DNA of 64,000 nt from NCBI GenBank assembly GCA_000018565.1, contig CP000875.1:633199-697198 (forward strand), written 5' to 3'. This DNA is from Herpetosiphon aurantiacus DSM 785 (GTDB lineage Bacteria; Chloroflexota; Chloroflexia; Chloroflexales; Herpetosiphonaceae). Both the position numbers and the translations under genes were made by a program. Shown here piece by piece: positions 1-16,842 of this stretch (the stretch's first letter is position 1; each line of letters starts with the position of its first letter). The notes under the pieces were generated by a model that saw only the letters and a list, made by a program, of their open reading frames with translations, was not told the DNA's origin and did no database searches.

Positions 1-387
1 CCCTATATTGAGCAGCGAAAGATTATTATCCCTGATCATAAAATATACTTTGCATCCTTTTCGAGTGAAAAATATGCTCACTTTATTTGTGCGCTACTCA
101 ATTCATCAATTATACGTGAATTTGTGGATAGCTTCACTATAAAATTGCAGGTTGGAACAATATTTAAGCATCTTCGATTGCCTAAGTTTGATTTAGAAAA
201 TGCCGAACATCTATCACTCGTTGACTTATCCATTACGGCACATAACACTATGAATAAAACAAATGGCAGTGGTAATATTGAAGCATTTATAGAACAAATT
301 GATATCATTGCTGTAAGATTATTAGCTAAATTTGCTGCCACTATTACCGATCAACTACAACAAGAAGGGTTTAATTTAGAATTTTAA
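1..387 (+). CDS. 5'-truncated ORF (runs off window start) resembling the TaqI_C-like target-recognition domain of N6-adenine DNA methyltransferases / type IIG restriction-modification or BREX PglX-like enzymes
   Basis: Frame 1 is open from nucleotide 1 to the stop at 387. The motif '...YFASFSSEKYAHFICALLNSSIIREFVDSFTIKLQVGTIFKHLRLPKF' matches the pattern seen in TaqI_C/HsdS-like specificity domains. The region is AT-rich like the neighbouring defence genes. Confidence 0.4.
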   Translation, partial: PYIEQRKIIIPDHKIYFASFSSEKYAHFICALLNSSIIREFVDSFTIKLQVGTIFKHLRLPKFDLENAEHLSLVDLSITAHNTMNKTNGSGNIEAFIEQIDIIAVRLLAKFAATITDQLQQEGFNLEF

Positions 388-404
388 TATAGAACGATTT
401 TTTA

Positions 405-462
405 TAAACAGAAACAGGTCATAGCAATTGACTGGTTATAACCTGTTTCTGTTTATTTTTTC
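405..462 (+). terminator. Rho-independent terminator hairpin between convergent genes
   Basis: Inverted repeat aaacagaaacaggt ... acctgtttctgttt, followed by a T-run (atttttt). It lies between the stop of the + ORF (387) and the stop of the minus-strand DUF262 gene (463). Confidence 0.6.
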
Positions 463-2169
463 TTAGGAGAATTCTATCCTCCATGTTTTTACGGCTTGCT
501 TTGCCAGTTCTTTTTGGCGTCTAATAATATCTGCAGGAAGCCATGTGCTATATTGTGTAAGCATATGAGTGTAATAAATTTGTGTTTCCTTGCTATAGAG
601 ATTAGTATTTTTGTAAATAAATCCTTTTGCTCCTGATTTCTTATTTGGCGTTGTTGAAACGAGCGCTTGGTTACCAAGTTTATAGATATATTTCCGTAAA
701 TCGTCACCTGCCTGTGTTATTGTATCAATCCATTCATTTGATGGATTCTGTGGTAAAATATGCTCCAAATTAACCTTTCTCGGATCATTAGAAACCTGTG
801 AGCTTCCTCCGTTAAAATTTTTTTCTAACTCTATAAGTAAATAACGTGATTTCTTTGCATCACTTAGAACCTTAGTACTGAACGCCTCCTCAAACTCTTC
901 GTCTGTAGGATATATCGATCTGAATTCTCTGCATACTTTTATACTTTTATTTAGCTCACCAGAATGGATCTTTTTCGGAATATCAGAATAGTAGTTTGAA
1001 ATAACACCTGTCCGTAATTCTCCAATTAAATTATATCGTACTGCCATAACGACCAAAGCATAGGTTAATTTCCTAAACTCAGTTGGATTAAATTTTTGTA
1101 CTGCTGCTAATAAAACTGGCATAACCTGCTGTGCATCAAGAATATCAAGTACTTCTAAGTTATCTCTAGTTTGTTTTTCATGGTCATTCCAATAATCATC
1201 ATTTGGATTTCCAAACGCCGCATATAATCTGGCCGATGTCCTCAAACTTCGTGCGAATTCTACCGCTTGGATGGGAGTATTTACTTGTTTTCTCATCAAT
1301 CTAAATAATTGTGGTTTTGATGTTCGTCCATGGATCGATGTCCAATAATGGTGGATAAATCGATCACTCGGATCGCTATGAAGAAGATTATCGCGTAAAA
1401 TAGACCATTCATTTTGTACTGAAGGAAGATACATACCTGATTTTTCAAATATATGATTTTTTAACAGTTCCATAGTTGTTAATCCCAGCCCTCGATCATT
1501 GAGTGTTTCGAAAATAGTATAGGCATCCGCTTCATCTGATACCTTTAATATTAATACATATATATGTTTTTGTATAATATTATGTATAGATAGGAGCGCA
1601 TCTGAACTAAATTCTGTACCAGAAAATTCCTTTTGCCTCTCGATCAGCAAACTATAAATCTGTTTGATTGCTTTTCCAAGAAGATGATTCGTATCTTTCT
1701 TAGGGAGATTTTTGATGTTTTCTTCTATTTCTTCAATATTTGATTCAGAAACAATGTATTTTTGAAAAAAAGGATTATTAATTTCATTCATTTGAAATTT
1801 AGAGTTTATAGTTAATGTATTTATATCTATTTTTCCAAAATATTCCCTATTAAACCATTCGTTTCGTTGGGTATCACTATTTATTCGATAAATATTTCTT
1901 ATACAGCTTAATATAATATATATAGCAGTAATTCTTTGCTGACCATCAATTATCTCATAATAACCATCCTTCTTCTTGAAAACCATTGATCCTAGAAAGT
2001 ACTCTGGCTGAGGTAATTCAATAATTGCTGTAATATCATCCCATAACAGCTTAATCTCATCTTCCGTCCAAGCAAAACTTCGTTGAAAGACTGGTACTTT
2101 TAAAGCTTCAACCTTGTTGATAAAATCCCCAATAGGCGCTGTCTCGCTTTCGATATAGGTATTTCCCAT
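463..2169 (-). CDS. GmrSD-like type IV restriction / BrxU-like nuclease with an N-terminal DUF262 (ParB-like NTPase) domain and a C-terminal DUF1524 (His-Me/HNH-like) domain
   Basis: N-terminal hallmark 'FQRSFAWTEDEIKLLWDDI...IIDGQQRITAI' (DUF262 QR and DGQQR motifs). C-terminal 'NLEHILPQNPSNEW...GNQALVSTTPNKKSGAKGF' (DUF1524 H...N...GN motif). GC content is about 30%. Confidence 0.8.
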   Translation of the reverse strand: MGNTYIESETAPIGDFINKVEALKVPVFQRSFAWTEDEIKLLWDDITAIIELPQPEYFLGSMVFKKKDGYYEIIDGQQRITAIYIILSCIRNIYRINSDTQRNEWFNREYFGKIDINTLTINSKFQMNEINNPFFQKYIVSESNIEEIEENIKNLPKKDTNHLLGKAIKQIYSLLIERQKEFSGTEFSSDALLSIHNIIQKHIYVLILKVSDEADAYTIFETLNDRGLGLTTMELLKNHIFEKSGMYLPSVQNEWSILRDNLLHSDPSDRFIHHYWTSIHGRTSKPQLFRLMRKQVNTPIQAVEFARSLRTSARLYAAFGNPNDDYWNDHEKQTRDNLEVLDILDAQQVMPVLLAAVQKFNPTEFRKLTYALVVMAVRYNLIGELRTGVISNYYSDIPKKIHSGELNKSIKVCREFRSIYPTDEEFEEAFSTKVLSDAKKSRYLLIELEKNFNGGSSQVSNDPRKVNLEHILPQNPSNEWIDTITQAGDDLRKYIYKLGNQALVSTTPNKKSGAKGFIYKNTNLYSKETQIYYTHMLTQYSTWLPADIIRRQKELAKQAVKTWRIEFS

Positions 2170-2252
2170 ATACGATCTCCTTCTGAACTATTAGGTCATA
2201 ATTCTGTCTATGTCGTAAAGCACTCGGGAATTTCCCAAGTGCTCCTTTCATC

Positions 2253-4379
2253 CTACTGCGTGATCGTCTTGAAAAAGGCTTTGATTTCCTGATCAATCTC
2301 CTCGTCCGTCATCAATGCCGCCAGCGCAGCTCCATCGCGACTCTTGTTGAAGCGTAGGCCATAGACCCGAAAGACCGCATCGAGCAGGACATCCCCTTGA
2401 ACGAGATTCATCTTTTCGGTTGGCCACCGTGCCTCGATGGCAGATGCTTCCTCTTGGGCAATGGCTGGGAATTGAGCCTTTGCATCGCTGAGTAGGGCTG
2501 TCAGCCGATCCAATTCCTGTATACTACGACTAACGAGATCGCCTGCCTTTGGCTTTTTGGGGAACAATACCTCGCGATCAAAGCGCAGAGCTGGCAGGCG
2601 TGCAGCGATACGCTTCTCAATGACCTGCTGTTTGCATGTTTCCACACAGGTAGTGATCTGCTGCTGGATCATTTCTTCTGTAATGCCTTCCGTTGTTGCT
2701 TGCAGTCCTGATATTTGGCCTTTGTCACGTAAGAACTGGGCAATGGCGCGTGGCACAAAGAGATAGTTTTCGATTTCCCGTTTGTTGAGTACCCTTACAT
2801 TCGATTTCCCCGATAAGGGTTGTTTAATACGATCAATCTGCTGTTGATCCCGCTCGTCACGATCAATTAAGAACCACGTCTGAATCTGTTTTTTACTCAA
2901 GAAATCAAGGGTTGCTTCAGCAGCATAATAGGTTTGATTGAAAACGCCTTCCATGGTGACAAAGCCAATATTGTGTTGGCTTAAATTCACGCCAAGCGTC
3001 GCAGTCCATGTCCGTAGTATCTCCTCATCAAGCTTGCCCTCAACGAAAATAAGCTTGTCGTACATAAATAGCGAGCTGAGACGTAAACCGAGTTCTTGTG
3101 GAATAAGACTGGCAGCCTCTTCAGTATTGAGTGCTCGCACGGTGGTTGATTCGTTTTTTGATACGAGATACACATTTTTGACATCACCGGTGTCAATAAA
3201 GTTGGTGGAATGGGTTGTCATAAAGATCTGGCACTCGGCGCTAATCTCCTTGAGGTAGCGCATGAGATTCATTTCAAGGGACGGATGCAGGTGCAATTCT
3301 GGTTCTTCGATTAATACCACCTTTGGTCGATGAATCTCATAATCAAAGATGATTCGCAAGGCTTCCTTAACCCCATAGCCATTCACTTGGATAAGGAAGT
3401 TATCAACATCCAAAACGGGATCGCTATTATCATCTTCGACAAAGGCATCAATAGTAATACCTAATACCATATTTGCTATGGTTTGGATTCGTTGCAATGT
3501 AGCCTTGCTTGCTTTTTTCTTTTTTAATTCTAAGAACACGTTTGCGTCATTAATATCTAATTCCGGCCTTCGCTCTTTAATATGATGAAAATGGTTCGAT
3601 ATTCTTTGTACTATTTCTTTTAGGGATAAAATTAATTTTTCTAAATCGATATTACTGTGCTTAGTTGTATTCAATATTCCTTCTATTACAGATAATTCAT
3701 CATTATTGTTTGATTTAATTCTCTCTTCTATTAGATTATCGAGTAATTCTTGATTTTTTGCTCCTTTCTTTATGTCATTAAAGTGTTCTCTATTATTTGA
3801 TTTGATAATATTATTTAACATTGAAATTGCTTGCTCAAATCCTGATTTATTTTTTTCTTTTATTTCATTTAATATTAATGTTTCGGAGGATATGTAATTT
3901 AGTATAATATGATATTGTACTAAATTAGATAAATTATTATTGATTATATCTAGTAATTCATGATTACTTTTGTCACCTTCCAAGGTTATATTTTTTAATA
4001 TTTTTGCATTAACTTTTGATTTTTTGTCTAATAAATTTACTATAGTAATACTTAATTTTGTGTATGTATTTTTTGTATTATTTTCAGGCTTATATATTTT
4101 TAAGTTATCTATGTCTGATTGAGAAATATTGAACTTTATGCTGATTTCGATTATTGAATCTTCACTATTATTGAAAAAATTTATTGTATCTTTGGAATCT
4201 TCAATAAATGTGAATAGTTTGCCTCGCTCCATAAACTCGAAAAACGTCGTAATCGCCAAGAGGATATTCGACTTCCCCGCATTATTCTTGCCAATCAGGA
4301 CATTGATATCCCCACAGCCGTTCAGCTGGGCGTGTTCAATACTGCGAAAGTTCTTGATGATCACGTCGGTTATCTTCAT
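2253..4379 (-). CDS. OLD-family (overcoming lysogenization defect) ATP-dependent nuclease: ABC-type ATPase with a long coiled-coil insertion, plus a C-terminal TOPRIM domain
   Basis: Walker A 'LIGKNNAGKSNIL'. Walker B/D-loop 'VVLIEEPELHLHPSL'. TOPRIM 'LIFVEGKLDEEIL' and 'FLIDRDERD'. An N/K/I-rich low-complexity insertion of about 250 aa (nt 3480-4230) is extremely AT-rich. Confidence 0.75.
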   Translation of the reverse strand: MKITDVIIKNFRSIEHAQLNGCGDINVLIGKNNAGKSNILLAITTFFEFMERGKLFTFIEDSKDTINFFNNSEDSIIEISIKFNISQSDIDNLKIYKPENNTKNTYTKLSITIVNLLDKKSKVNAKILKNITLEGDKSNHELLDIINNNLSNLVQYHIILNYISSETLILNEIKEKNKSGFEQAISMLNNIIKSNNREHFNDIKKGAKNQELLDNLIEERIKSNNNDELSVIEGILNTTKHSNIDLEKLILSLKEIVQRISNHFHHIKERRPELDINDANVFLELKKKKASKATLQRIQTIANMVLGITIDAFVEDDNSDPVLDVDNFLIQVNGYGVKEALRIIFDYEIHRPKVVLIEEPELHLHPSLEMNLMRYLKEISAECQIFMTTHSTNFIDTGDVKNVYLVSKNESTTVRALNTEEAASLIPQELGLRLSSLFMYDKLIFVEGKLDEEILRTWTATLGVNLSQHNIGFVTMEGVFNQTYYAAEATLDFLSKKQIQTWFLIDRDERDQQQIDRIKQPLSGKSNVRVLNKREIENYLFVPRAIAQFLRDKGQISGLQATTEGITEEMIQQQITTCVETCKQQVIEKRIAARLPALRFDREVLFPKKPKAGDLVSRSIQELDRLTALLSDAKAQFPAIAQEEASAIEARWPTEKMNLVQGDVLLDAVFRVYGLRFNKSRDGAALAALMTDEEIDQEIKAFFKTITQ

Positions 4380-4656
4380 ACACCCTCCTGCTAGCCTGTG
4401 CTGCTTCAGTGCTGGGACAAACGGTGCTGTGTATCATACCACAGCCATGCAGCAAAACCGACCAAAGCCCCTTTTTACTCGTTGTATCGCTATAGTGTGT
4501 TTGACTGTGAATTTGCTGGATGCCGCTGCGTACTGATTCGCTACTTGCGATTTGATTAACAATCGAAACAGGTTTATGGTAGCAGCTACAGTAAAATCTT
4601 TAGATAGTTTTAATGATGTATTCCTTTTAGATGAAAAAACGCTAGTTTCTGGTAAG

Positions 4657-4703
4657 CATCGAGCACGTGGGAATTTCTTTCCCACGTGCTCGATGGTTTT
4701 AGG
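4657..4703. terminator. Stem-loop at the boundary between the phage tail operon and the defence island
   Basis: catcgagcacgtggg aatttcttt cccacgtgctcgatg: a perfect 15-bp stem immediately after the stop of the tail gene (4699) and followed by gtttta. Confidence 0.35.
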
Positions 4704-6384
4704 CTTGTGCTAACCACAGATCCAGCTGCTTAATCGGCGCTTCCGGCGTAACGCTCACCTCACCTGTCATCAGATTCACCGAGGTTTCAGCCAGCGTATA
4801 GCTGCGCTTGTTGATCGCGCCGGATAAATCACCAATGGTAATCACATCGCCACGACTGAGTAGATCGAGTGGCTCGCGCACATTGTACTCGTTGCGCACG
4901 GCGCGGACGTTCAGACTGGCGCGAACGGTCGGTGCTGCATCGGTCAAGGCGACGCTGCGCAACGTGGCCGCCTCGGTGCTATCCGTGGTTTCGCTGGCAA
5001 TGGTGCGCTGGCGAACGATGCCTAAGGCATAGCGCTCGCTGGCGTGTTCCGCGAAGGCGGTATAGAGCGGTTGGTTACTGGCGTTCTTGTAGGCAACCCT
5101 GATTTGGTTGGTTGCTTCGCCCAGCGCTTTCTCCAGTTCAATCGAGCCATCGACGAGGGCAAAGGTGCGGCCTGTTTCCTTGGGACCATAGTAGAGGTAT
5201 TGGGCATCATCGACATAGGTCACATACTGCGCCTGATCGGCCAACTCCTGTACCACGCTCAAGCCGGATGCAGCCGACCATGCGGCTTCCAAACAATCGC
5301 GGCTACTCTTGATAATCCGCGCACTGCTCTGCTTGATCCCGCTACCCGGGTTGGTTGTGAGGTTGCGGCTCAAGACATCTTCGACAATCTCTTTATCGGT
5401 CACGACAATCCCGCGCACAGTCACGCCAAGGACGTGGGTCTTGGTAAAGGCGGCTTGGAATTGGGTGGCATTGACCGCCAAGACTACGACACTCTCGCTA
5501 TTCACCCCACCGCTTTCGATGGTCAGGCGTTGACCAACCGCGATATTGAGGGTACTCGCCACGGGCACGAAGGCCGTGCCAATGGCAATTGCACCGCTGG
5601 TGGTCGTGTTGACCATGTTCGTGGTGACCGTGGCCACGCGCAGGTTGCTGATCTTCAGGTAATCATCGCCTGTTTCCCCGATATAGGTGGCGAGGGCGGC
5701 GTTGTAATACATCGCAACACTGACGAGGGGCCGCGCCGCGAAGGTGAAGCACAGCGATCCGGTTTGGGCTGTGCCATTACCCAGGGCAATCGTGGTCGCT
5801 CCGGTTTGGCTGCTGTAATCGCGCTCGGCAGCGAGGAAGGTTGCCAGCCAATTGGTGGGGCCTTTCGAGCGCCAATCGAATTGGATAACTTGGAATCCGG
5901 TGGTGTTCAGATTCGCCGGAATGAAGAGCGACTGACGACCAATCCCCTTGGCGTTGCTAAATTGTTCATTCTTGCGCGGCGACAAACTGATCGTGCCATC
6001 ATCGTGGCGCATCTCCCAGCGCTCGGGCGTGGACGAGGCGGTTTCGACAGGCAGCCAACCATCCAGTTTCGTGACTGACCACCAGCCATCGTACTCCAAG
6101 TCGTCGAGCGTCACAATTAGATTGTGGCATTCAATGGCTAAGCCCTGATCAATCAGGCGTAGGGTGACGGTGCGATAGCGCAGGGTTTTGCCATCGCTGC
6201 GCTGCACCACGGCGGTTAATAATCGCGCTTGGGCATACAGCGTTTTGGCGATAAACGGCACAAGCCGCACGCTGACAGTTAAGCCGTTGGTGCTCAGGGT
6301 TGCGTCGGTGACCTGGCGATCAAAGCGGGCCAGTTGCACATTGGTGAAGGGATCATAAAGCGAAATCGCGTACTGCATTGACAT
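4699..6384 (-). CDS. Phage tail protein (Tal-like / baseplate or tail-tip protein)
   Basis: Sits immediately downstream of the Dit-like gene in a tape-measure/Dit/Tal arrangement. GC-rich like the rest of the phage cluster. No catalytic motif was recognised. Confidence 0.45.
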   Translation of the reverse strand: MSMQYAISLYDPFTNVQLARFDRQVTDATLSTNGLTVSVRLVPFIAKTLYAQARLLTAVVQRSDGKTLRYRTVTLRLIDQGLAIECHNLIVTLDDLEYDGWWSVTKLDGWLPVETASSTPERWEMRHDDGTISLSPRKNEQFSNAKGIGRQSLFIPANLNTTGFQVIQFDWRSKGPTNWLATFLAAERDYSSQTGATTIALGNGTAQTGSLCFTFAARPLVSVAMYYNAALATYIGETGDDYLKISNLRVATVTTNMVNTTTSGAIAIGTAFVPVASTLNIAVGQRLTIESGGVNSESVVVLAVNATQFQAAFTKTHVLGVTVRGIVVTDKEIVEDVLSRNLTTNPGSGIKQSSARIIKSSRDCLEAAWSAASGLSVVQELADQAQYVTYVDDAQYLYYGPKETGRTFALVDGSIELEKALGEATNQIRVAYKNASNQPLYTAFAEHASERYALGIVRQRTIASETTDSTEAATLRSVALTDAAPTVRASLNVRAVRNEYNVREPLDLLSRGDVITIGDLSGAINKRSYTLAETSVNLMTGEVSVTPEAPIKQLDLWLAQA

Positions 6385-6393
6385 TGACCCCTC

Positions 6394-7770
6394 CTACAGT
6401 GGGATAATCGCGCCATTGAGGCGTGATGCTTGAACGGTCATGGTGCGGGCGCTGGCGGCATTCTCGGTGGTGGCACTCCAGGCATTGCCATTGACCGCAA
6501 ACAGATTGACATCGAGCTGGAGATCCTTCGTCAATGCCAAGGGATTGCTATCGGTGGGCACGGCTTGGGTTACACCCGCATTCGTCCACGTCAGACTGGC
6601 ATCGGGGTTGCTCAGATAACGGGCATCGACGGTGATCGTCGTGGCCGTGCTGGGCAATGGCAGCGACGCGAAGGGAATCACACTCCAGCCGCCTGCATCG
6701 GCGGCAATGGTCAGGATGGCATTGATATAGATCGCTCCGGCGTTGGTCAGGTTGGTCAGCTTCAGTTGGTGGCCCGTGATTAAATAGGGTGCGCTGGTTT
6801 GGCCAAGTGGCACAATGATTGGGGTAGCACTATCGACAAGGGTGGCACGGCCTTCGATTAATGCGCCATTACTGCGCACCACGGGCGTGATTAAAAAGGG
6901 TGCGGTCGTTTTGAGCATGGCCCACTGAATAATCGAACGGCTATTGAGCGGCCCAATATCGGTCAGCACCCCGTTGGGCGAATAGGATGGCGTGACGCTG
7001 GGAAAGTTGTAGAAACAGAGGAGGTTATCAGTGGCATAGACCCCCGATGCTTGAATTTGGCGTGACCAACCAAACTGGGTTGGACTAGGCGCAAACAACC
7101 ACGCCGCCGATTTGACCATCTTGCCGCGTGGAGCCACGGCAATCAGGCCATTGATGGTTGTTCCATTGGTGGCTGCGGCCACATTCAAGGTGAGGTTGGT
7201 GGGGCTTTCCAGCGGGGCCGCGCTGCCGCTGAAATTCGGCTGATGGATGTTGGCGATATTGGCGCTGGCACTGGTGCTGCTATTTGTACTGGCTGTGGCG
7301 CAGCGCAGCGGGCGGCAGAGAAACATGACGGGCACATTGAGAATCCACCAAACATCATTATCTTGGATCAGCGTGGGCGATGTGCCGACCATGGGCGTAT
7401 CGCCTGCGCGGCCCATCACCAGCATATCGCTATGCACGGTGTTGTCACTGGGCTTGGTACGCCACACCACGGCGCTGCTATAGCCTTCCTCGTAAAAGCG
7501 CTCGGCATCGTCGAGTAACACCATCAGCGCGTGGTAGGCGGCCCACGCCTGATCTTCATTCGTGCCACCAAAGATATTCACGGCAAACGATTGCACGCTG
7601 GGTTGAAACTGTTCGCCATTGGAGATCAAACGGCGGTCGCGCTGTGGAACCTGTGGCTGCCACGAGCCATCGACAAGCCAATAGCAGGTGGTTCCTTCGG
7701 TTGGGTTTACGCCAGCAGGCATGAAGTCAATCACGACGCTGCCATTGCGGAGTAGTTGCATTGTTGTCAT
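6394..7770 (-). CDS. Phage distal tail protein (Dit)-like, with a C-terminal extension
   Basis: Synteny: directly downstream of the tape measure gene. T/S/N-rich, beta-rich C-terminal region typical of evolved Dit proteins. Confidence 0.45.
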   Translation of the reverse strand: MTTMQLLRNGSVVIDFMPAGVNPTEGTTCYWLVDGSWQPQVPQRDRRLISNGEQFQPSVQSFAVNIFGGTNEDQAWAAYHALMVLLDDAERFYEEGYSSAVVWRTKPSDNTVHSDMLVMGRAGDTPMVGTSPTLIQDNDVWWILNVPVMFLCRPLRCATASTNSSTSASANIANIHQPNFSGSAAPLESPTNLTLNVAAATNGTTINGLIAVAPRGKMVKSAAWLFAPSPTQFGWSRQIQASGVYATDNLLCFYNFPSVTPSYSPNGVLTDIGPLNSRSIIQWAMLKTTAPFLITPVVRSNGALIEGRATLVDSATPIIVPLGQTSAPYLITGHQLKLTNLTNAGAIYINAILTIAADAGGWSVIPFASLPLPSTATTITVDARYLSNPDASLTWTNAGVTQAVPTDSNPLALTKDLQLDVNLFAVNGNAWSATTENAASARTMTVQASRLNGAIIPL

Positions 7771-7855
7771 ACAAGCCGCCTCCTTTGGGCGGTGGGTGTG
7801 GTTGGGTTAATGGTCGTGTGTGCAGGATTGTTTCAGCCCTGCACACGGTCAATCG

Positions 7856-10800
7856 TTATTTGCCAAAGGGATTGGTTTTCTTCTGAATATTTGCCTTTTC
7901 GACATAGTTCTTGATGGCCTTTTCAGCGCCACGAATGGCCGCCGCTTCGACCGCTGCGGGATTCATGGCTTCACGGGCATCAACGGCAATCTCATAGGTG
8001 TAATAGTTGACAATGGTTGTCCCACTCGCTCCCTCCATGCCGCGTGCGCCGACCATACCGCCTTGGGGTACGACCATGCGAGCCGTCATGCCCTTGGTTT
8101 CTTCGGCGGTGAAGACCTCCGCGCCGCGTGGAATGTTGCTAATGCCTGGCGGCAACAGCGCAAAGTCGCCGCCGCGTGTGCGCATGGCTTCGATGCCCTT
8201 CCACGGCTCGGAGGCAAAGGCCAAACCGCCAGCCCAATTCTTCACCCCGTCGGCTAAGTAGGGAATCAGTGGAATGCCACCGAAGCCCAAGGCGGAGCCA
8301 ACGGTATTCGCGCCTTCAATGAGTTTGTTGACGGCGGTGATCATCAGGTTGAGCGGAGATTTAATGCCACTGAGGATGCCGCGAAAGGCTTCCACAATCC
8401 CGTTGGTAATTTCATCCCACACCGCAGCACTGGCATCCTTAATCCATTGCCACGCCACCGCAACCCCGTTTTTGAATTGCTCCAAAAAGCCGTCAAGGTT
8501 GTCGAGCACACCGCCAAACATCGTGCGGAAGTAGTCGCTGATGCCATCCCACGCGGTGCGAATGCCCGTGCCAATGAGATCCCACGCGACCACCAAGAGG
8601 TTCCAGACAACCTCCAGCGCCCCCTTCACGATGTCGATGATGCCATTCCAGAGTCCGGCAAAGACATCCTTGATTGCCGTCCATGCGCCTGACCAATCCC
8701 CGTGAATCACGGCAGTGACGGTTTTGATCACGCCTTGAATCACGCTCATGGCGGCTTCGACGATGCCCTTGATGATGCTCCATGCCCCACTGAGCAGGCC
8801 CGTGATCTGGTCTTTGTGGTCGCTGAGGAAGGTGGCGATGCCGTGGAAGAATGGAATAATCGCACCATCAATCACATCCAGTGCGCCATCAATGACGACC
8901 TGAATAGTTTCCCACGCCATCGTCAGCACACCTTTGATTTCTTCGCCGTGCTGCTCAAGGAAGCTTCGGATTGCGTCGAGTGCGGTTTGAATCACCGTGC
9001 CAACCGCGCCCAGCACCGTGCTCACAATGCCCTCAATCCGGCCCCACGCATCACGCAGGAAGGTCACGATCTGCTCGCCGTTCTCGCGGAACCAACTGGT
9101 AATTAGCCCAAAGGCGGTTTGTACGGTGGTCTGTACCGCATTGAAAACCTCTCCGGTGATGGTGCGGATATTGGCGAAATTGGTTTGCCACGCCAATCCC
9201 AGCGCGGCGGCTCCGGCTACCAGTAAGCCCATCGGTGACACGAGTGCGGCGACCGCTCCCGCCAAGCCCGTGAACAGTGACACCAGGCCCATACCCGTGA
9301 AGAGGGTGGCAATGCCCATGAATGCGCCTTTGACCGATTCAATAAACGGTGCAGCTTGGCTGAAAGCGTTGCGAATCCGGTCGATCAAGGATGGCACAGG
9401 CGCGGTGGCATTGGCCATTTCGACTTGGCGATCCTTCAAATCAGCATAGCGATCGGCGGCTACCTCGGCTCCGGTTGCCGCATCCTGCATGGATTGATTG
9501 GTTTCGTCCGCGCCATCCTTAACCTTGGTGAATGGTGGAACGAGCGCACCGACACCTTTGGCCGCACCCTTGGCCGCGCCGCCCACACCTTTCATTTTCT
9601 CGGCTGAAGCCTCTAACTCTTTTTGTTGCTGGGCTTCGAGCTGCGAGATTTGAGTTTTGATGCGCCAATATTCGGATTGGTCAGCGTTGGTATTGGCCAA
9701 TTCACCTTGGAGGATTGCCAGCTTGCCCGCAGTATCCGCTGTGGCATACTGATAATCGCGTTCGGCTTTGGCGGCTTCGTCCTGTTTCCGCTTGACCTCC
9801 TCCAGCTCGCGCTGGCGCTGTTTCTCGGCCTTATTGATCTCCTGTTGAATATCGTTGTATTCGGCGCTGCCCTCGGCGTATTGGCCCTGCTCTTGGCGCA
9901 AGCGAGCTAACTGATCCTCGGTGGACATGAGGCTTAACTCATAGTCGCGTTGCTCTTTGGCCAGTTTATTGAGTTCCGCCTGACGTTTCTGCTCTTCCTG
10001 ATTAATCTGCCCTTGCAGTCGCCAATACTCGGCATCGGTTGTGGCATAGGCGGCCTGCTTGTCCTTGAGCATCTGTAAGCGATCGGCAGTTCCGGCAATA
10101 CTGAAGCTGTATTCCCACTGCGCACGGGCCGCCGCTTCAGCTTTCTTGGCGGCATCGTCCATGGGCGATTTGCCGCCGCCACCCCCGCCGCCCGTGGCTT
10201 TGGGCTTTTTGACTTCCTGCTCGGCGGCTTTGGCTTGTTCCTCGCGGATTTTCTGGCGCAGCTTCAGGGCGGCTAGCTCCAGTTTGGCCTGCTCGCGGTC
10301 ACTATCCTTGCCACCCGTACTATTAATCAGCGCCAAGAGCTGCTTTTCTTGGGCTGCTTCCTTGACCCGCTGCTGGGCATCTTCAATCGATTGCAGTTCG
10401 GTTTCGAGATAGGCCAGTAGCCCATCGGTTGGCAGCCGCGCATCATTCCAACCATCCATCCAGACTTGCGCCGTATCGCGGCCCCAGGTGTCGATATTGG
10501 GAAGCAGCTTGGGTGGAGAATGCGGCTCAAGCCAATAGGTCACGAGGTCGCCAATGTAGCCAAGGCTATCGACGACCGCACCAGCACCACCCATAATCCC
10601 GTTGGCTAGCTGGGTGGCAATGTTGCTACCCCATTGCACCGCGCTGCTGGCAAGGTCAATGAACAGACCAAAGGCTTCGCTCGCCGTGCTGGCGAAGTCA
10701 AGGAAATACGGGCCAACCATCTGGACGGCTGTACCAATCCGCTCAAACGCTCCCACAACCACGGCGCTGATGCGGGGCATGGCTTCGGCCAACCAATCGG

Positions 10801-11947
10801 CAAAGGCTTGGACGGTGGGTGCTAATGCATTCCCAATATTCGTTTGCAACACGGCAAATTGGGCACGAATCCCGTCAAAGGCTCGCACTAAGCCTTGATC
10901 CATTTGGTTATAGGCGGCCTCGGTGGCTCCGGCGCTGTTTTGCATCGCATCGAGCGCCCCCGTGAACATCTCGGTGCCGCGTCCGGTCAGGGTCAGCGCC
11001 GCGCTACCCGCTTCGACAGAGCTAAATAAGTCATTGATGCCCACGCCACTGGCATTGGCGTGCTGCTCCAGCAGTTGCAGCGCTTGCTGAACGTTGCCAC
11101 CGCTCTCAATAAAGGATTTAAACGAGGTGCCAGAAAGTTGCTGGAATAGCTCAGAGACTTCGCCACCTGATTGCGATAACTCCACAAACAACTGGCGCAA
11201 CATCGTGGTGGTTTGGGCGGTAGGCACACCTTGCGAGGTCATAGCGGCAATCGCGGCAGAGACATCGCTGAACGATACGCCCAAGCTCGCGGCAATCGGG
11301 TTGACGTTGTAGAGCGTGCTCGCCAGTTCGGCAAACGTGGTTTTGCCATAGGCCACGGCGGTAAACATCTGGTCGCTGGCATCTTGCACGCTCAGCACGT
11401 CCGCGCCGTAGGCATTGACTACACTGGTCAGGCCGTCCACCGTGGTTTGGGTATCGGTTACGCCGCCGATAGCCGCTTTCTGCGCGGTTTCGAGGAAGGA
11501 AAACACATTGTCTTTGGGCACGCCCGAGGACAAGGCTTCATAGAGCGCGGGGATCACTTTCTCGGGCAACGCTCCAAATTCCACCGCAAAGTCTTTGACC
11601 TGCTCACCCATCTGCTGCATGGCCTGTTGGGAAATACCCGGCAGCAACGTGAACACGCTATTCATCTGCTGTTGGAAGCCCGCGAACGCGTTGACCCCCG
11701 TGACCGCCAGTCCTGCTAAGGCTGCGCCTGCGGCAGCCACCGCGCCCGCAATGGCGGTGGTCAGTGCGGTACTCAGACTTTCGGCTAACGACTGCGCGAA
11801 GCCCTTGGCTTTGGTTTCGGCGTTGCTGATCGAGCGATCAAGCTCGGCATCATCCGCGCCGATTTTAATGATTGCTCGCCCTAATTCTTCATCGGCCATG
11901 GCCGCCACCTCTGCTGATGGAATAGAACGCCCACGCGCCCATCCCAC
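7856..11947 (-). CDS. Phage tail tape measure protein
   Basis: 1363 aa with an extensive A/Q/E-rich coiled-coil centre, Gly/Ala-rich membrane-like segments and a glycine run (GGGGGGGK). It is preceded by the tail chaperone pair with a frameshift site. Confidence 0.85.
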   Translation of the reverse strand: MGWARGRSIPSAEVAAMADEELGRAIIKIGADDAELDRSISNAETKAKGFAQSLAESLSTALTTAIAGAVAAAGAALAGLAVTGVNAFAGFQQQMNSVFTLLPGISQQAMQQMGEQVKDFAVEFGALPEKVIPALYEALSSGVPKDNVFSFLETAQKAAIGGVTDTQTTVDGLTSVVNAYGADVLSVQDASDQMFTAVAYGKTTFAELASTLYNVNPIAASLGVSFSDVSAAIAAMTSQGVPTAQTTTMLRQLFVELSQSGGEVSELFQQLSGTSFKSFIESGGNVQQALQLLEQHANASGVGINDLFSSVEAGSAALTLTGRGTEMFTGALDAMQNSAGATEAAYNQMDQGLVRAFDGIRAQFAVLQTNIGNALAPTVQAFADWLAEAMPRISAVVVGAFERIGTAVQMVGPYFLDFASTASEAFGLFIDLASSAVQWGSNIATQLANGIMGGAGAVVDSLGYIGDLVTYWLEPHSPPKLLPNIDTWGRDTAQVWMDGWNDARLPTDGLLAYLETELQSIEDAQQRVKEAAQEKQLLALINSTGGKDSDREQAKLELAALKLRQKIREEQAKAAEQEVKKPKATGGGGGGGKSPMDDAAKKAEAAARAQWEYSFSIAGTADRLQMLKDKQAAYATTDAEYWRLQGQINQEEQKRQAELNKLAKEQRDYELSLMSTEDQLARLRQEQGQYAEGSAEYNDIQQEINKAEKQRQRELEEVKRKQDEAAKAERDYQYATADTAGKLAILQGELANTNADQSEYWRIKTQISQLEAQQQKELEASAEKMKGVGGAAKGAAKGVGALVPPFTKVKDGADETNQSMQDAATGAEVAADRYADLKDRQVEMANATAPVPSLIDRIRNAFSQAAPFIESVKGAFMGIATLFTGMGLVSLFTGLAGAVAALVSPMGLLVAGAAALGLAWQTNFANIRTITGEVFNAVQTTVQTAFGLITSWFRENGEQIVTFLRDAWGRIEGIVSTVLGAVGTVIQTALDAIRSFLEQHGEEIKGVLTMAWETIQVVIDGALDVIDGAIIPFFHGIATFLSDHKDQITGLLSGAWSIIKGIVEAAMSVIQGVIKTVTAVIHGDWSGAWTAIKDVFAGLWNGIIDIVKGALEVVWNLLVVAWDLIGTGIRTAWDGISDYFRTMFGGVLDNLDGFLEQFKNGVAVAWQWIKDASAAVWDEITNGIVEAFRGILSGIKSPLNLMITAVNKLIEGANTVGSALGFGGIPLIPYLADGVKNWAGGLAFASEPWKGIEAMRTRGGDFALLPPGISNIPRGAEVFTAEETKGMTARMVVPQGGMVGARGMEGASGTTIVNYYTYEIAVDAREAMNPAAVEAAAIRGAEKAIKNYVEKANIQKKTNPFGK

Positions 11948-12187
11948 GATTGCGATTGTCGAATCGTGAAAAGCGGGCGCGTGGGCAATCCATCGCGGCG
12001 GCTTTGTTTCCTATGAAGCGGCGCAGCGGCGCGGGTTACATAGGACTAGTCGTTGGTTTTCGGTTGCGCTTTGCGACGACCAGGCTTAATTTTGTAGGTG
12101 TCAATCGCTTTAGCAATGGCTATCAACGCGCGATGGATGGCGATCCACATCGTGGTATCTGCATCCATAGGGTGTACTCCAGTGAAT

Positions 12188-12580
12188 TTATGGCCGGACC
12201 GATCGGGCTTTCATGTTTGCGATAAGCTGGGAGGCGCTGACATAGTTCACCTCGGATCGGGTGCTGGCTGGCTGATTGGCTTTCTTTCGCTTGCTCGTAC
12301 CCTTGCCCTTGCCCTTGGTATCATCGCCAAACAACATCGTGCCCACCTTGGTGGCAATCAGCATGGCCTGCTGCTCGCGTTCGTTGTGCATCCGGCGTAA
12401 GTACGAGGGCAGCAGCTCCAGCACGGTTTCTTCATACAGCTCGTGGGGTGGAATGCCATAGACGGCATACATTACTTCCACCACATCATCGGTATGGGTG
12501 GATTCATTTAGCCAATGCTTGAAAAACCCGCTGCCAAGACTTGTAACTTTTTTATCGGGACAGCCGCATTGGCAATGCAC
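12188..12580 (-). CDS. Tail assembly chaperone, -1 frame extension (T part of a G/GT pair)
   Basis: Overlaps the upstream chaperone ORF by 73 nt in the -1 frame. The overlap contains an A_AAA_AAG slippery heptamer. Confidence 0.55.
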   Translation of the reverse strand: MHCQCGCPDKKVTSLGSGFFKHWLNESTHTDDVVEVMYAVYGIPPHELYEETVLELLPSYLRRMHNEREQQAMLIATKVGTMLFGDDTKGKGKGTSKRKKANQPASTRSEVNYVSASQLIANMKARSVRP

Positions 12581-12960
12581 AGAAAGGCATCAATAATTTC
12601 CTCATCAAGAATTTCGTCATCGATGCTTTTTGGAATTGCACCACTCGCATAGGCAATAATCAGTGATAAAGCATCTTCCAGCAGACCATCAACCGATTCC
12701 AGCATCGTGACGATATAGGCCGTCAAGGCTTCGCCGGATTGTTTACCCTCTTCATTGGTTGCGGGCGGCTTACTCATCTGGTCAACTTGTGGCATCACCT
12801 TTTTGGCGACATCAATCAACTTCTTTTTGAAGTCTTGATTTTGACGAAACGGCAACTTACGAATTTCTTTGACCTCGCCGCCGATGGTCAGGGAAAGCAT
12901 GACAGCCATGGGTGTGTATCCTTTGCGCTTAAAAATGTCAATCAAACCAAACCCTCTCAC
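12508..12960 (-). CDS. Tail assembly chaperone (gpG-like)
   Basis: 150 aa acidic protein between the major tail protein and the tape measure protein. Its C-terminus '...PIKKLQVL' spans the slippery site. Confidence 0.6.
   Translation of the reverse strand: MRGFGLIDIFKRKGYTPMAVMLSLTIGGEVKEIRKLPFRQNQDFKKKLIDVAKKVMPQVDQMSKPPATNEEGKQSGEALTAYIVTMLESVDGLLEDALSLIIAYASGAIPKSIDDEILDEEIIDAFLCIANAAVPIKKLQVLAAGFSSIG
12547..12553 (-). other. Programmed -1 ribosomal frameshift slippery heptamer A_AAA_AAG
   Basis: The mRNA reads CCG AUA AAA AAG UUA in the zero frame (P-I-K-K-L). The -1 frame reads AAA AAA GUU ACA (K-K-V-T), matching ORF2 '...DKKVTSLGSGFF'. Confidence 0.55.
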
Positions 12961-12972
12961 TCTCCCAATCCC

Positions 12973-13650
12973 TTAGGACGCGGCTTCAACCACGCGGACT
13001 AATTGAAATAACCGCTCGCCTTTGGTTTTGGATAAATCCTCCAAGGCTGACAGCTTCAACGGAATACCCGTCCAATCTTCTTTGCTAAATTCCAACTCGC
13101 CGCCTTCTTCACTGGTCGCTTTCCAGATGAAGCCACGCACGGGGAACACATTCCCTTCTTCATCCTCTTGCTCGGCTTCAAAGCCCCACATGCGAATGGG
13201 CAACTGGGCCGCGCCGCCGATTTTGAAGGTTTCTTTGCCGACTTGGCCCACGCCTGAGGCGACCACGGTATTGGTTCCCCCCCATGTACTGGGCAATCCG
13301 GCGAAATCCAGTTGCGCCATGGTCGTTTCGGCGGTTAATTCTTCGCTGACCTTTTTGCGCTTGACCGCGCCCAAAGCTTCTTGGATTTCGGGTGCTTTGG
13401 TTTCGTAGCTGTAGGCCACGACCAGTGGGGCACTCGTTAGGCCGTACTGTACCCAGCCTACGGGCCACGCGGCTCCAACGGCTAAGCTATCAGCAGGCAG
13501 GGTTGTACCCACCGGAGCGTATAACAGCTTGGCATTACTCATCGTTACAGCAGCAACATCGGTTGGCATTCCAACCTCCTTTGTAGTGAAATCGGTCGAA
13601 TCTAATAGTTCTTGATATGGGCTGTCCACCCCGACAAGGCGAACAGCCAC
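12973..13650 (-). CDS. Phage major tail protein
   Basis: Sits immediately upstream of the tail chaperone pair. Size 225 aa. Confidence 0.55.
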   Translation of the reverse strand: MAVRLVGVDSPYQELLDSTDFTTKEVGMPTDVAAVTMSNAKLLYAPVGTTLPADSLAVGAAWPVGWVQYGLTSAPLVVAYSYETKAPEIQEALGAVKRKKVSEELTAETTMAQLDFAGLPSTWGGTNTVVASGVGQVGKETFKIGGAAQLPIRMWGFEAEQEDEEGNVFPVRGFIWKATSEEGGELEFSKEDWTGIPLKLSALEDLSKTKGERLFQLVRVVEAAS

Positions 13651-13988
13651 AAGGTTGTTTGGGTGCGGAGCAGGCGCGGCATGGCGCTGCTATCGGGCCG
13701 TAGCCGCGTCACCCCATTACCCCGATCCATCCACGCATCACAGCAGGTGCGCCACAGGTCGATGCACACGCCTTCGTCCGTGCCATACAGTTGCACATAC
13801 AGCGATGGACTCAGGATTGTGCGGGTGTAATCGAAGCCACCGCCGCGAATGACAAACAGAATCGCGGGGCCGACATCCGGCGTGTAGCCCTGCGGCAAAT
13901 CCGGTCCGACCCATACGCGATTGCTTACCAGTGCGGTCACGGTGGGTGTGCTCATGGCGGTGATGATGGCAGCAATTGGGTCAACCAT
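13602..13988 (-). CDS. Phage tail completion / tail terminator protein (DUF3168-like)
   Basis: Position in the head-tail joining block; size 128 aa. Confidence 0.35.
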   Translation of the reverse strand: MVDPIAAIITAMSTPTVTALVSNRVWVGPDLPQGYTPDVGPAILFVIRGGGFDYTRTILSPSLYVQLYGTDEGVCIDLWRTCCDAWMDRGNGVTRLRPDSSAMPRLLRTQTTLWLFALSGWTAHIKNY

Positions 13989-14413
13989 TACAACCCTCGC
14001 TTGCGGCGCACGACCTGCACGATGCCGCCAAAGTCAGCCTTGACCTGATCGAGTGCGGGAAACAAAAAGGGCGCTCGCAGTTCGATGTAAATCGCATAAT
14101 TGGCGGCGCAGCCCACGGCGCTGGTGTTATCGCCCATGGCAGGCAACCCAGCGGATGTGCGTTGGACCACATCGCCATGCTTATCGGGCAGGTCTGTCGT
14201 CGAGCTATCGACCCCTTGCCCATCGACCAACACGGCGTGGATACTGTTGAGCGCAAAGCCGGTATCAATGCTGTTATTGGCCATCATGTTTTGTTTGGCA
14301 TACCCTTCACCTGCCAACGCCGCCTCATTCAACAGGTCGCGGGTTGCGCCGTCGATCCGCACCCGAAAGCGCTTGGCAAAGGATTGGTACTGGGCTACGC
14401 CTTTTTTGGCCAT
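13988..14413 (-). CDS. HK97 gp10-family phage protein (tail/head-tail joining)
   Basis: Motif 'NNSIDTGFALNSIH' resembles the gp10 'vdTGnLrrSi' signature. Synteny supports it. Confidence 0.5.
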   Translation of the reverse strand: MAKKGVAQYQSFAKRFRVRIDGATRDLLNEAALAGEGYAKQNMMANNSIDTGFALNSIHAVLVDGQGVDSSTTDLPDKHGDVVQRTSAGLPAMGDNTSAVGCAANYAIYIELRAPFLFPALDQVKADFGGIVQVVRRKRGL

Positions 14414-14415
14414 GA

Positions 14416-14868
14416 TTAGACCTCCTCGCGGGTGACGGTCGCTAATTCCACCACGATGGCCGTGCCAAGCGTGGCCGGATCGCCCACCACCTCAAACGTT
14501 AGCGCGGGGGTAAGCACCTGCCCATTGCGGTGGGTGATGCGCACGCGCCATGACGCACGAATCACGGTTCCGGCAGGCAAGCGCAGGGTTGGCTTGGTGA
14601 TCACGACCGCCGTGCTGTCTAAAACTTCCTCGCTGGCAACGCCGTTGGCCGTGCTGGGATTGAACCCACAGGCCGACGACCCTGCGTCGGTGTAGGTGAT
14701 CACGGGTTTGTTATTGCGGCCTGCGCTGGTCTGTGGCTCCATGAGCACACATTGGTCGCGCATCGCGTCCGTGTGCGTGGCCTGCATCACCGTGAATTCA
14801 GTGGGTCGCATCGGTAACATACGGCTTCCTTCTTCCTTACCAGCGGCTAAAGGTATCGAGCGTGCCAC
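14416..14868 (-). CDS. Phage head closure / head-tail adaptor protein
   Basis: Synteny between the gp6-like and gp10-like genes. Size 150 aa. Confidence 0.35.
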   Translation of the reverse strand: MARSIPLAAGKEEGSRMLPMRPTEFTVMQATHTDAMRDQCVLMEPQTSAGRNNKPVITYTDAGSSACGFNPSTANGVASEEVLDSTAVVITKPTLRLPAGTVIRASWRVRITHRNGQVLTPALTFEVVGDPATLGTAIVVELATVTREEV

Positions 14869-15229
14869 TCATGGGCGCTTCTTCGACAACAACAGGTTGA
14901 TTGGTGACAAACTCGGCTTCGAGCTGCTTAAGCATGCGCACGGCGTGGTCGTGCATAGCCTTCCGGTCAAATTTCCCGCCATCGGCTTCGAAATTAATCG
15001 CGGTCACGGTCGCATTGACCACACTGCGCCACACTTCAATGATGGCGACGGTTTCCAGGAGCGGATCATTGGCTGATGCTGCGACATTTGGTAGATTCAA
15101 CCGTCGTAAGGTTCTTCGTAAGGCGGCGTTGTAGCCTGCGTTGCTCACATCCGTCCAGTTAAGCACGGTCGCGGTTTCCAGCAGTTCTTCCTGCATCACC
15201 GCTTTGATACTGCCATCGGTGTGTGCCAT
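14837..15229 (-). CDS. Phage gp6-like head-tail connector protein
   Basis: Size 130 aa. Acidic N-terminus 'MQEELLETATVLNWTDV'. Located right after the capsid genes. Confidence 0.45.
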   Translation of the reverse strand: MAHTDGSIKAVMQEELLETATVLNWTDVSNAGYNAALRRTLRRLNLPNVAASANDPLLETVAIIEVWRSVVNATVTAINFEADGGKFDRKAMHDHAVRMLKQLEAEFVTNQPVVVEEAPMSGTLDTFSRW

Positions 15230-15649
15230 TTAGGCCGCCTTGTACTCACGCAATTTCTTGATTGTGGCCTCGCCAATCCCATCGATGGCGCTCAACGTGG
15301 CATCATCGGCGGCGACGGCATCGCCATAGGTGGTATAGCCCGCTGCGGCCAAGCTTGCGGCTGCCTTGCTACCCACAACGCTAACCAACTCCACTGATGG
15401 CTCGGCGGGTGCTTGGCCGCCATCGGTGGTTGGCGTGCCTGCGTCGCCGTCGGCATTCGGCGTGGCAGGCTGTTCGACCCGCTGTACTGGCTCGGCGGCC
15501 ACAGGCTCAATCGACTGTACGTCAGTGGTCGCGTTGGCCGCAACCAAAATATTCGCGATGGACTCATCGAGCGTATGTACGCCAGGCAGATAGGTTGTCC
15601 CGAGGTGCATCCACGAATCAGTTAAGGTGACCTTGACCTTGGTTGACAT
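15230..15649 (-). CDS. Phage protein with a C-terminal helix-hairpin-helix motif
   Basis: C-terminal 'LSAIDGIGEATIKKLREY' (HhH GIG motif). Pro/Ala-rich linker. Confidence 0.35.
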   Translation of the reverse strand: MSTKVKVTLTDSWMHLGTTYLPGVHTLDESIANILVAANATTDVQSIEPVAAEPVQRVEQPATPNADGDAGTPTTDGGQAPAEPSVELVSVVGSKAAASLAAAGYTTYGDAVAADDATLSAIDGIGEATIKKLREYKAA

Positions 15650-15698
15650 GCGTGTCCTCCTTTGAACGCATTGAATGATTGAAAACTTCTCCGCTCGC

Positions 15699-16784: not shown

Positions 16785-16842
16785 CGGACAAAACTCCTAA
16801 ACAGTATTGATGATTGAATGAATGACGAGGCCTTCGCCCTGC

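Follow-up and report, generated by a model that had tools for sequence, protein, structure and literature searches.

In a 64-kb stretch of DNA from Herpetosiphon aurantiacus DSM 785 (Chloroflexota), referred to as a whole as the window, positions 1-4660 very probably represent the right part of a ~8.2-kb cargo slot, or defense hotspot, in a temperate phage-like element. Three separate defense genes would stand in this slot: an OLD-family nuclease gene, a GmrSD-like DUF262/DUF1524 nuclease gene and a type IIG restriction-modification (R-M) gene. A preliminary description of the same DNA had proposed that the OLD and GmrSD-like genes could form a functional two-gene unit. Our analyses replace this candidate 'new two-gene defense system' with three known single-gene defense types stacked in a phage cargo slot. 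The features of the region, with predictions from Pfam, PADLOC and AlphaFold2 (AF2) models of intact open reading frames (ORFs) where indicated, are:

1-387, plus strand: 3' end of the type IIG R-M gene, the last 128 codons of a 1093-amino-acid protein, with a reading frame that runs uninterrupted from the edge of the window to its stop at 385-387
404-456, both strands: hairpin resembling a bidirectional terminator, where the type IIG and GmrSD-like genes converge, with U-runs after the stem on both strands
463-2169, minus strand: GmrSD-like DUF262/DUF1524 nuclease of the HEC-06 family, 568 amino acids, ABX03193.1; ORF intact (Pfam, PADLOC, AF2)
2218-2244, minus strand: GC-rich 12-bp stem with a 3-nt loop, 8 nt past the OLD stop; 3' limit of the OLD cassette
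2253-4379, minus strand: OLD-family nuclease, 708 amino acids, in which an ABC ATPase is joined with a TOPRIM domain, ABX03194.1; ORF intact (Pfam, motifs, AF2 model)
4380-4462, minus strand: leader/promoter region that moves with the OLD gene; 5' limit of the cassette at 4462-2218
4657-4695, minus strand: 17-bp stem-loop directly 3' of the tail-gene stop; conserved phage-side border of the slot
4699-6384, minus strand: last tail-module gene, 561 amino acids, adjoining the tape measure gene; conserved hotspot flank

The case for a cargo slot rests on related elements, which were retrieved from the IMG/VR viral contigs by using the tail protein and the Replic_Relax protein (encoded on the far side of the slot) each as a query. 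Five related loci have the tail gene on one side, a Replic_Relax gene (87-94% amino acid identity) on the other and 6.4-9 kb of unrelated cargo between them. The tail protein is 86-96% identical in L189-L191 (L numbers denote fetched loci) and 35% identical in L194 and L196, and its gene always faces the variable region. Homology between the window and L189-L191 stops at window 4661-4681, within the tail-gene hairpin. Conserved flanks around differing cargo, six cargo sets in all, were found across L189-L196. The cargo of the related elements comprises:

L191: a MmeI-type type IIG enzyme
L190 and L195: a methyltransferase-Mrr fusion, a PIN_8 protein and a C5 methylase
L196: Shosta (ShosT/ShosA), a trypsin-like protein and PDC-M36A/B
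L194: a PD-T4-6/mad6-like Ser/Thr kinase and two unknown proteins
L189 and L192: an amine oxidase and unknown proteins

The slot would extend from the last tail gene and its terminator hairpin to the conserved Replic_Relax gene, which bears out the earlier suggestion that defense cargo adjoins the tail end of the phage cluster. Beyond Replic_Relax, the order DUF3102-ThiF-JAB-E2 is found in L194 and L196 as it is in Herpetosiphon, which places the slot inside a ~48-kb phage-like element rather than at its end.

The phage-side border of the slot coincides with the hairpin at 4657-4695, which folds at -32.1 kcal/mol (z = -8.2) and is kept with compensatory changes in the relatives. This post-tail hairpin and the one that follows the OLD gene belong to a single family (GCACnYGR...YCRnGTGC), and these two are its only members in the 64 kb. 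The post-tail hairpin of L190 is nearly identical to the post-OLD hairpins of the window and of L016, the locus with the closest relative of the OLD gene. The slot of L189 holds two extra 3' ends of the tail gene, each with a hairpin. We infer that cargo is exchanged by recombination at conserved borders, and the hairpin family may be the substrate for such exchange.

The far side of the slot lies outside the window and was read in two public contigs, L001 and L002, which are 100% identical to the window and extend the region leftwards past its edge. Left of the window they carry the type IIG gene, a 59-amino-acid ORF, the Replic_Relax gene (~3.6 kb past the edge), an orphan gene and then genes with DUF3102, ThiF (E1-like), Prok-JAB and Prok-E2 domains. 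The module of Replic_Relax, DUF3102, ThiF, Prok-JAB and Prok-E2_D, found at 9279-15082 of L002, 6627-10936 of L194 and 6626-10936 of L196, is a ubiquitin-like conjugation set that belongs to the core phage genes and not to the cargo.

Within the slot, the two genes of the supposed pair are both on the minus strand (708-amino-acid ORF at 2253-4379, 568-amino-acid ORF at 463-2169) with exactly 83 bp between them (2170-2252), so that the preliminary description was accurate on their shared direction and spacing. Read 5' to 3' on that strand, the order is last tail gene (4699-6384), OLD gene, GmrSD-like gene. The homology of the OLD gene to L016 outlines a discrete cassette: blastn aligns window 4462-4413 at 86% and 4412-2218 at 79% identity, with no homology outside these limits. 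L016 is the closest OLD relative (79% nucleotide identity), and the aligned span comprises only the gene, a leader of ~80 nt and the terminal hairpin. The homology ends at window 2218, and the hairpin is likewise found 3' of the OLD gene in L016, where the neighbors are a DUF4276/AAA_15 system and a Mrr_cat/nSTAND3 gene. The GC content steps at the hairpin, from 43-54% in the 3' half of the OLD gene to 33% in the GmrSD-like gene.

The relation between the two genes was then assessed across other loci by turning family alignments into hidden Markov models and searching every ORF in the fetched loci with them. No OLD gene was found in 80 genomic and 35 viral GmrSD-like loci (~1.6 Mb of flanks), and no GmrSD-like gene in 80 metagenomic and 80 viral OLD-like loci. 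Among the matches listed in the GmrSD genome scan the relatives are 27-33% identical and not the closest ones, and the close ones were inspected singly. The OLD metagenome scan yielded only three close relatives, the remainder being distant OLD-like ATPases that serve as a broad control only. Four GmrSD relatives at 51-58% identity (P0127, P0129, P0132 and P0139) have no OLD neighbor, and three more OLD relatives (Nostoc, a 3.5-Mb contig and soil contigs, among L184-L188) have neither a GmrSD-like nor a helicase neighbor; in L016, too, no helicase adjoins the OLD gene. In total, an OLD neighbor was present in 0 of ~119 GmrSD-like loci and a GmrSD-like neighbor in 0 of ~164 OLD-like loci. Nor do the relatives of the GmrSD-like protein, four close and 115 distant, share any other conserved partner gene. 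Five of the GmrSD-like loci do have some AAA_15-like ATPase within 10 kb, which adjoins the GmrSD-like gene in L060 only; this ATPase was considered as an OLD partner and rejected, as its similarity to OLD is limited to the Walker A/B segments and it lacks a TOPRIM domain.

Signals in the 83-bp gap between the two genes were examined as well. The folding energy of the gap is -27.2 kcal/mol (z = -4.8 versus shuffles), and where no obvious terminator had been noted, the 12-bp stem described above follows the OLD stop, though without a canonical U-tract: only UUU comes after the 2218-2244 stem, which is therefore not a canonical intrinsic terminator. A scan for sigma-70-like promoters found none in the gap, the promoter counts of the consensus scan being equal to those of shuffles. 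The inverted repeat at 404-456, downstream of the GmrSD-like gene, has 20-nt arms that are 95% complementary and folds at -26.1/-25.3 kcal/mol (z = -8.7/-7.3). All three hairpins were missed by a consensus terminator scan, because U-tracts are lacking or the loop rule is exceeded.

Because each gene occurs independently in all other loci examined, and because a strong hairpin separates the two here, we do not regard them as a functional pair. Judged by sequence comparison, they stand side by side in this element alone and were acquired separately. Three considerations weigh against this conclusion. Most comparison loci are distant (23-33% identity), and the close relatives inspected number eight, four per protein. 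Outside Herpetosiphon neither gene has a near-identical copy, so a partnership specific to this lineage is possible. Finally, with a U-less hairpin and no promoter in the gap, co-transcription of the OLD and GmrSD-like genes by read-through is possible.

The OLD protein itself has the parts of a self-contained nuclease. Pfam AAA_15 spans residues 1-395 (E=7e-29), and OLD-like_TOPRIM spans residues 438-508 with 24.0 bits, barely over the 23.2 cut-off. Among 34 homologues the ATPase motifs GKNNAGKS (K36) and EEPE(358-361)LHLHP are invariant, as are the TOPRIM residues E447, D451, D506 and D508 (D506xD508). The AF2 model has a pLDDT (predicted local distance difference test) of 83.5, and its best Foldseek match in the PDB is the T. 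scotoductus OLD 6p74, the Class 1 archetype (E=1.4e-13), with a global TM-score that is low (0.27-0.35); sequence similarity to solved OLDs is confined to the Walker B/signature region. A Shine-Dalgarno sequence, AGGAGG, lies upstream of the ATG. With no UvrD-like helicase, no reverse transcriptase or noncoding RNA, and an unsplit ATPase and TOPRIM, the gene has a stand-alone organization, and the predicted protein is a Class 1 OLD by gene organization as PMC10568477 defines it. It belongs to a clade of ~740-amino-acid proteins common in Nostoc, Streptomyces and soil metagenomes, none of which is a studied member. Class 1 OLDs act alone (PMC10568477, PMC12392090). By analogy with P2 Old, TsOLD and Vc OLD (PMC10568477, PMC12392090), this protein would be a two-metal TOPRIM nuclease, or a nickase, under the control of its ABC ATPase; it would nick or degrade DNA in the course of an infection and block phage DNA replication.

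The composition of the OLD gene is strongly mosaic along its codons: codons 1-50 have 45% GC (GC3, the GC fraction at third codon positions, 0.70), codons 51-300 have 18-37% (GC3 0.12-0.36) and codons 350-708 have 43-54%, for an overall 38.5%. The preliminary description had credited all three genes with roughly 30% GC, which comes close for the GmrSD-like gene (33.3%) and the type IIG fragment (32.3%) and does not hold for the mosaic OLD gene or for the full type IIG gene, which otherwise has 42-45%. The GC trough lies at window 3480-4229 (codons 51-300), and its profile is shared by the L016 copy, which is 79% identical. The trough encodes a variable insert of the ABC ATPase, which the model folds into a beta-sheet (77-145) and long helices (147-261), and residues 48-270 have no invariant position among homologues. 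An AT-rich donor may have supplied this stretch in an old domain swap. A recent chimera was rejected as the source of the mosaic, since the shared profile in L016 shows that it predates insertion here. In L016 the OLD gene is called as three fragments (77, 87 and 426 amino acids) broken within the AT-rich segment, which is either a pseudogene or a long-read assembly error. The L016 region (7072-16982) is a different defense island, with AAA_15+DUF4276, Mrr_cat/nSTAND3 and NACHT proteins.

The GmrSD-like protein also appears complete. Pfam GmrSD_N spans residues 13-241 (7.5e-39) and GmrSD_C residues 420-557 (5.8e-19) of the 568, and the PADLOC HEC-06 profile PDLC04155 matches residues 4-566 over its full length (562 profile positions, E=4.1e-182, 604 bits). 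The DGQQR motif (75-79) is invariant among homologues; in the NLEHILP motif H470 is invariant and E469 nearly so, and N500 and N509 are invariant. The AF2 model (pLDDT 90.4) has DndI (9jfl, TM 0.75) as its nearest solved fold, followed by SspE. DndI 9JFL is also the best match among solved structures by sequence profile (E=3.4e-48, full length), and BrxU is not among the matches. The protein is at most 59% identical to any other in a collection of 5.8 billion sequences, and a Shine-Dalgarno sequence, AAGGAG, lies 7 nt before its ATG.

HEC-06 defended Escherichia coli as a single gene, and its essential residues are Q79, R80, E471 and H472 (bioRxiv 10.1101/2024.01.29.577857). The equivalents in the GmrSD-like protein are kept (Q78, R79, E469 and H470). 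On these family features, the protein is predicted to be a single-gene, NTP-dependent His-Me finger defense nuclease. Activity and trigger are both assigned here through family membership: the DUF262 NTPase (DGQQR) would gate the DUF1524 His-Me nuclease, the target of which would be non-self DNA, and most likely DNA that is modified. In two Logan assemblies (L013 and L014, 2885-4590, equivalent to window 463-2169; ERR9765778 and ERR9765779) one 1-nt indel splits the GmrSD-like gene and leaves the OLD gene intact. The positions of the indels differ (205+336 amino acids in one, 337+219 in the other), and both contigs are otherwise identical to the window. Such splits could be genuine loss-of-function variants or else errors of assembly at homopolymers.

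The third defense gene is cut by the window edge, and the full type IIG gene was read in L001 and L002. Its 1093-amino-acid protein matches Pfam N6_Mtase at 341-450 and Eco57I at 428-684, and PADLOC REase_MTase_IIG PDLC03630 covers residues 1-1093 (E=0, 1603 bits). The preliminary description had read the edge ORF as a TaqI_C-like specificity domain that pointed to a methyltransferase or type IIG enzyme. The type IIG assignment stands, whereas the TaqI_C match is sub-threshold (E=0.073, 13.8 bits versus a cut-off of 26.5). The ORF had also been placed upstream of the other two genes; being on the plus strand, it runs convergent to the GmrSD-like gene at the latter's downstream side. Nor did the alternative of a BREX/DISARM-type component find support, as no further core genes (PglZ, BrxC, BrxL, DrmA/B/C) were present within 10 kb and PglX matches were weak and local. 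Window 1-387 probably encodes the target-recognition region, and the low GC of this 3' end (window 1-387 and L002 5206-5600) would fit a swapped specificity module. The enzyme would cut unmodified DNA and methylate self DNA.

Taken as a whole, the slot would hold three separately acquired and separately acting genes, OLD, HEC-06-type GmrSD-like and type IIG, which may protect the lysogen in an additive, layered manner against different phages.

The most direct alternative is that the OLD and DUF262/DUF1524 genes are a compact Menshen-like two-gene system, in which a DUF262 DNA sensor works with an ABC ATPase and TOPRIM effector, co-transcribed from the OLD promoter. As Menshen shows, DUF262 proteins can act together with AAA_15/OLD-type ATPases and with TOPRIM-fold effectors (PMC12065111, PMC10952713), but the locus shows no Menshen features: the ATPase has no DUF3696 (none in Pfam at E<=0.01), the DUF262 protein carries a DUF1524, a third gene is missing and the gene order is reversed. 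The shared direction, the 83-bp spacing, the lack of a promoter-like site in the gap and the missing canonical U-tract of the 2218-2244 hairpin speak for such a system; set against them are a co-occurrence of 0 in ~283 loci with relatives of either protein, a GC discontinuity at the junction and cassette limits (4462 and 2218) that leave the GmrSD-like gene outside. Each protein moreover has its own complete nuclease, and HEC-06 is sufficient alone (bioRxiv 10.1101/2024.01.29.577857). We consider this system very improbable. In a variant of the idea, the OLD and HEC-06-type genes would be a lineage-specific unit co-transcribed through the U-less hairpin, with a Menshen-like division of labor in which DUF262 senses the state of the DNA and OLD adds a second nuclease activity. 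We give this variant very little credence, though if it were true, the unit would be a composite system that has only just arisen, observed where it formed in a phage cargo slot.

Two further alternatives concern the nature of the GmrSD-like protein and of the island. The protein could be a phosphorothioate-sensing nuclease of the DndI/SspE type, which would need host phosphorothioation as a self mark instead of acting as an autonomous type IV-like enzyme. DndI 9JFL is the nearest solved structure by profile and by fold, with SspE next, but at 58 bits versus 604 for HEC-06, a family that defended E. coli by itself (bioRxiv 10.1101/2024.01.29.577857). The region of the PxYQ sensing patch is conserved as P26-V27-F28-Q29, where the phosphorothioate-sensing Tyr (DndI Y25; PMC11662687) is replaced by Phe, at a position that is F, Y or H in the family. 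The 10 kb searched around the gene here (L001/L002) contain no dnd or ssp genes, and none stand beside P0127, P0129, P0132 and P0139; the gene, moreover, belongs to the mobile cargo of a phage slot, and a literature search found nothing on phosphorothioation in Herpetosiphon. A dependence on phosphorothioation therefore seems unlikely to us. As for the island, it could be host chromosome, or a separate mobile element with the Replic_Relax and E1/E2/JAB genes, that abuts the end of a prophage at ~4660. Phage homology ends at 4661-4681, the composition changes sharply there, Replic_Relax is typical of plasmid-like elements and metagenome contigs break near the junction. However, the order of tail gene, slot, Replic_Relax, DUF3102, ThiF, JAB and E2 is found with differing cargo in four independent IMG/VR contigs (~48-79 kb), and the duplicated tail-gene 3' end and hairpin in the slot of L189 are expected under recombinational cargo exchange. 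A non-phage island is accordingly a scarcely credible reading, and we retain the cargo slot with three separate defense genes.

The island adjoins the last tail gene of a phage structural cluster with 53-58% GC, the phage identity of which is confirmed by the following genes:

7856-11947: tape measure gene
15699-16784: major head gene
20782-22215: large terminase gene

The two distal tail genes had no match in Pfam or PHROGs, and blastn of the tail region found no match among 50,697 GenBank phages. Searches of 1-5200 with Rfam (E<=1) and of the whole window with ARAGORN were likewise without a match, which indicates that neither a retron noncoding RNA nor a tRNA attachment site lies near the island. 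Among L001-L015, all 14 of the 14 public contigs with exact copies of the genes begin within the last tail gene (~4880-6030) or within the AT-rich part of the OLD gene (~3930). These starts suggest assembly breaks, at a repeat (perhaps a second related prophage) or at a change in coverage or composition.

Several observations on the related elements were made along the way. Sites of the hairpin family are at window 2220-2242 and 4663-4689 and at 11293-11315 and 20626-20648 of L016, which is not a phage context. Hairpin copies in L189 are at 11660-11740, 14389-14572 and 16025-16126, each with a duplicated 3' end of the tail gene. The 78.8-kb contig IMGVR_UViG_2508501111_000003, from which L189, L191 and L192 derive, contains two inverted copies of the element with their Replic_Relax genes ~4.7 kb apart, and each copy has its own, differing slot cargo. 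Between Replic_Relax and DUF3102, L002 has an orphan gene (10702-11892, 396 amino acids, 24-27% GC) with no Pfam or PADLOC match. It is present in the Herpetosiphon copy only, Replic_Relax and DUF3102 being adjacent in L194 and L196, and its position may be a second small cargo site. Slot genes without a Pfam or PADLOC match are found at L194 11654-14571, L191 12419-13369 and L192 15605-16699 (380, 586, 316 and 364 amino acids) and are, by position, candidate unknown defense genes.

Each of the three genes belongs to a known family and the type of locus is known; what is new is an example from the Chloroflexota, to our knowledge a phylum with almost no phage-defense work. The locus documents a defense hotspot in temperate phages of this phylum. 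Its borders are clear, with Replic_Relax at one end and the tail gene plus hairpin at the other, and could serve to mine further cargo, including the unannotated genes of L189, L191 and L194. The ~740-amino-acid stand-alone OLD clade and the divergent HEC-06 member are candidates worth testing.

A comparison with characterized systems places each gene near a known single-gene type. The OLD protein resembles the Class 1 OLDs (P2 Old, TsOLD 6P74 and Vc OLD) in combining, in one polypeptide, an ABC ATPase that has a helical dimerization insert with the Glu/DxD residues of TOPRIM, and in having no dedicated partner gene (PMC10568477). As with P2 Old, its gene lies in a prophage, in a slot where related phages have other defenses. 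It differs from TsOLD in length (708 versus 528 amino acids) and in an extra C-terminal helical domain at ~543-707. Whereas Class 1 genes are usually isolated (PMC10568477), the OLD gene here is inside a defense island. Gabija (GajA + GajB) differs in that no helicase is present in the window or in L001/L002, and the PADLOC GajA matches to the OLD protein cover only the common ATPase/TOPRIM core. The GmrSD-like protein shares with HEC-06 a DUF262 domain (DGQQR), a linker and a DUF1524 domain (an EH...N...N His-Me finger), an arrangement related to GmrSD, BrxU, SspE and DndI; unlike HEC-06, its gene is phage-borne and not within a Hachiman system. DndI is nearest in fold, yet dnd genes are absent nearby and the sensing Tyr is a Phe.

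Menshen bears on the pairing of these domains, which the preliminary description had not recognized as a named system and which Menshen in fact combines (PMC12065111, PMC10952713). In NsnABC, NsnA is a DUF262 protein without DUF1524, NsnB combines AAA_15 with DUF3696 and NsnC combines inPIN with a nuclease, in A-B-C order (PMC12065111). The likeness lies in the domains that neighboring genes supply, a ParB-like NTPase with DUF262 and an AAA_15 'OLD-ABC' ATPase, to which some variants add a TOPRIM-fold nuclease (PMC12065111). The difference is that here two genes, ATPase then DUF262, each encode a complete ATPase-nuclease or NTPase-nuclease, with an adjacency that is not conserved. Menshen is the nearest named system that unites DUF262 with an OLD-type ATPase (PMC12065111, PMC10952713), and the Herpetosiphon locus fails every Menshen feature tested.

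For the slot itself, the closest parallels are prophage defense hotspots such as the P2 old/tin and Z/fun loci, the P2 old locus being one example (PMC10568477). In these hotspots, as here, conserved phage genes flank a short region beside a structural module, the cargo is unrelated from phage to phage and OLD is one option among others (PMC10568477, citing Rousset 2022). The Herpetosiphon slot differs in its Chloroflexota host and in its flanks, which are a tail gene with a hairpin on one side and Replic_Relax, followed by an E1/E2/JAB module, on the other. It also differs in that its cargo is bounded by a single hairpin family and, in L189, by duplicated 3' ends of the tail gene.

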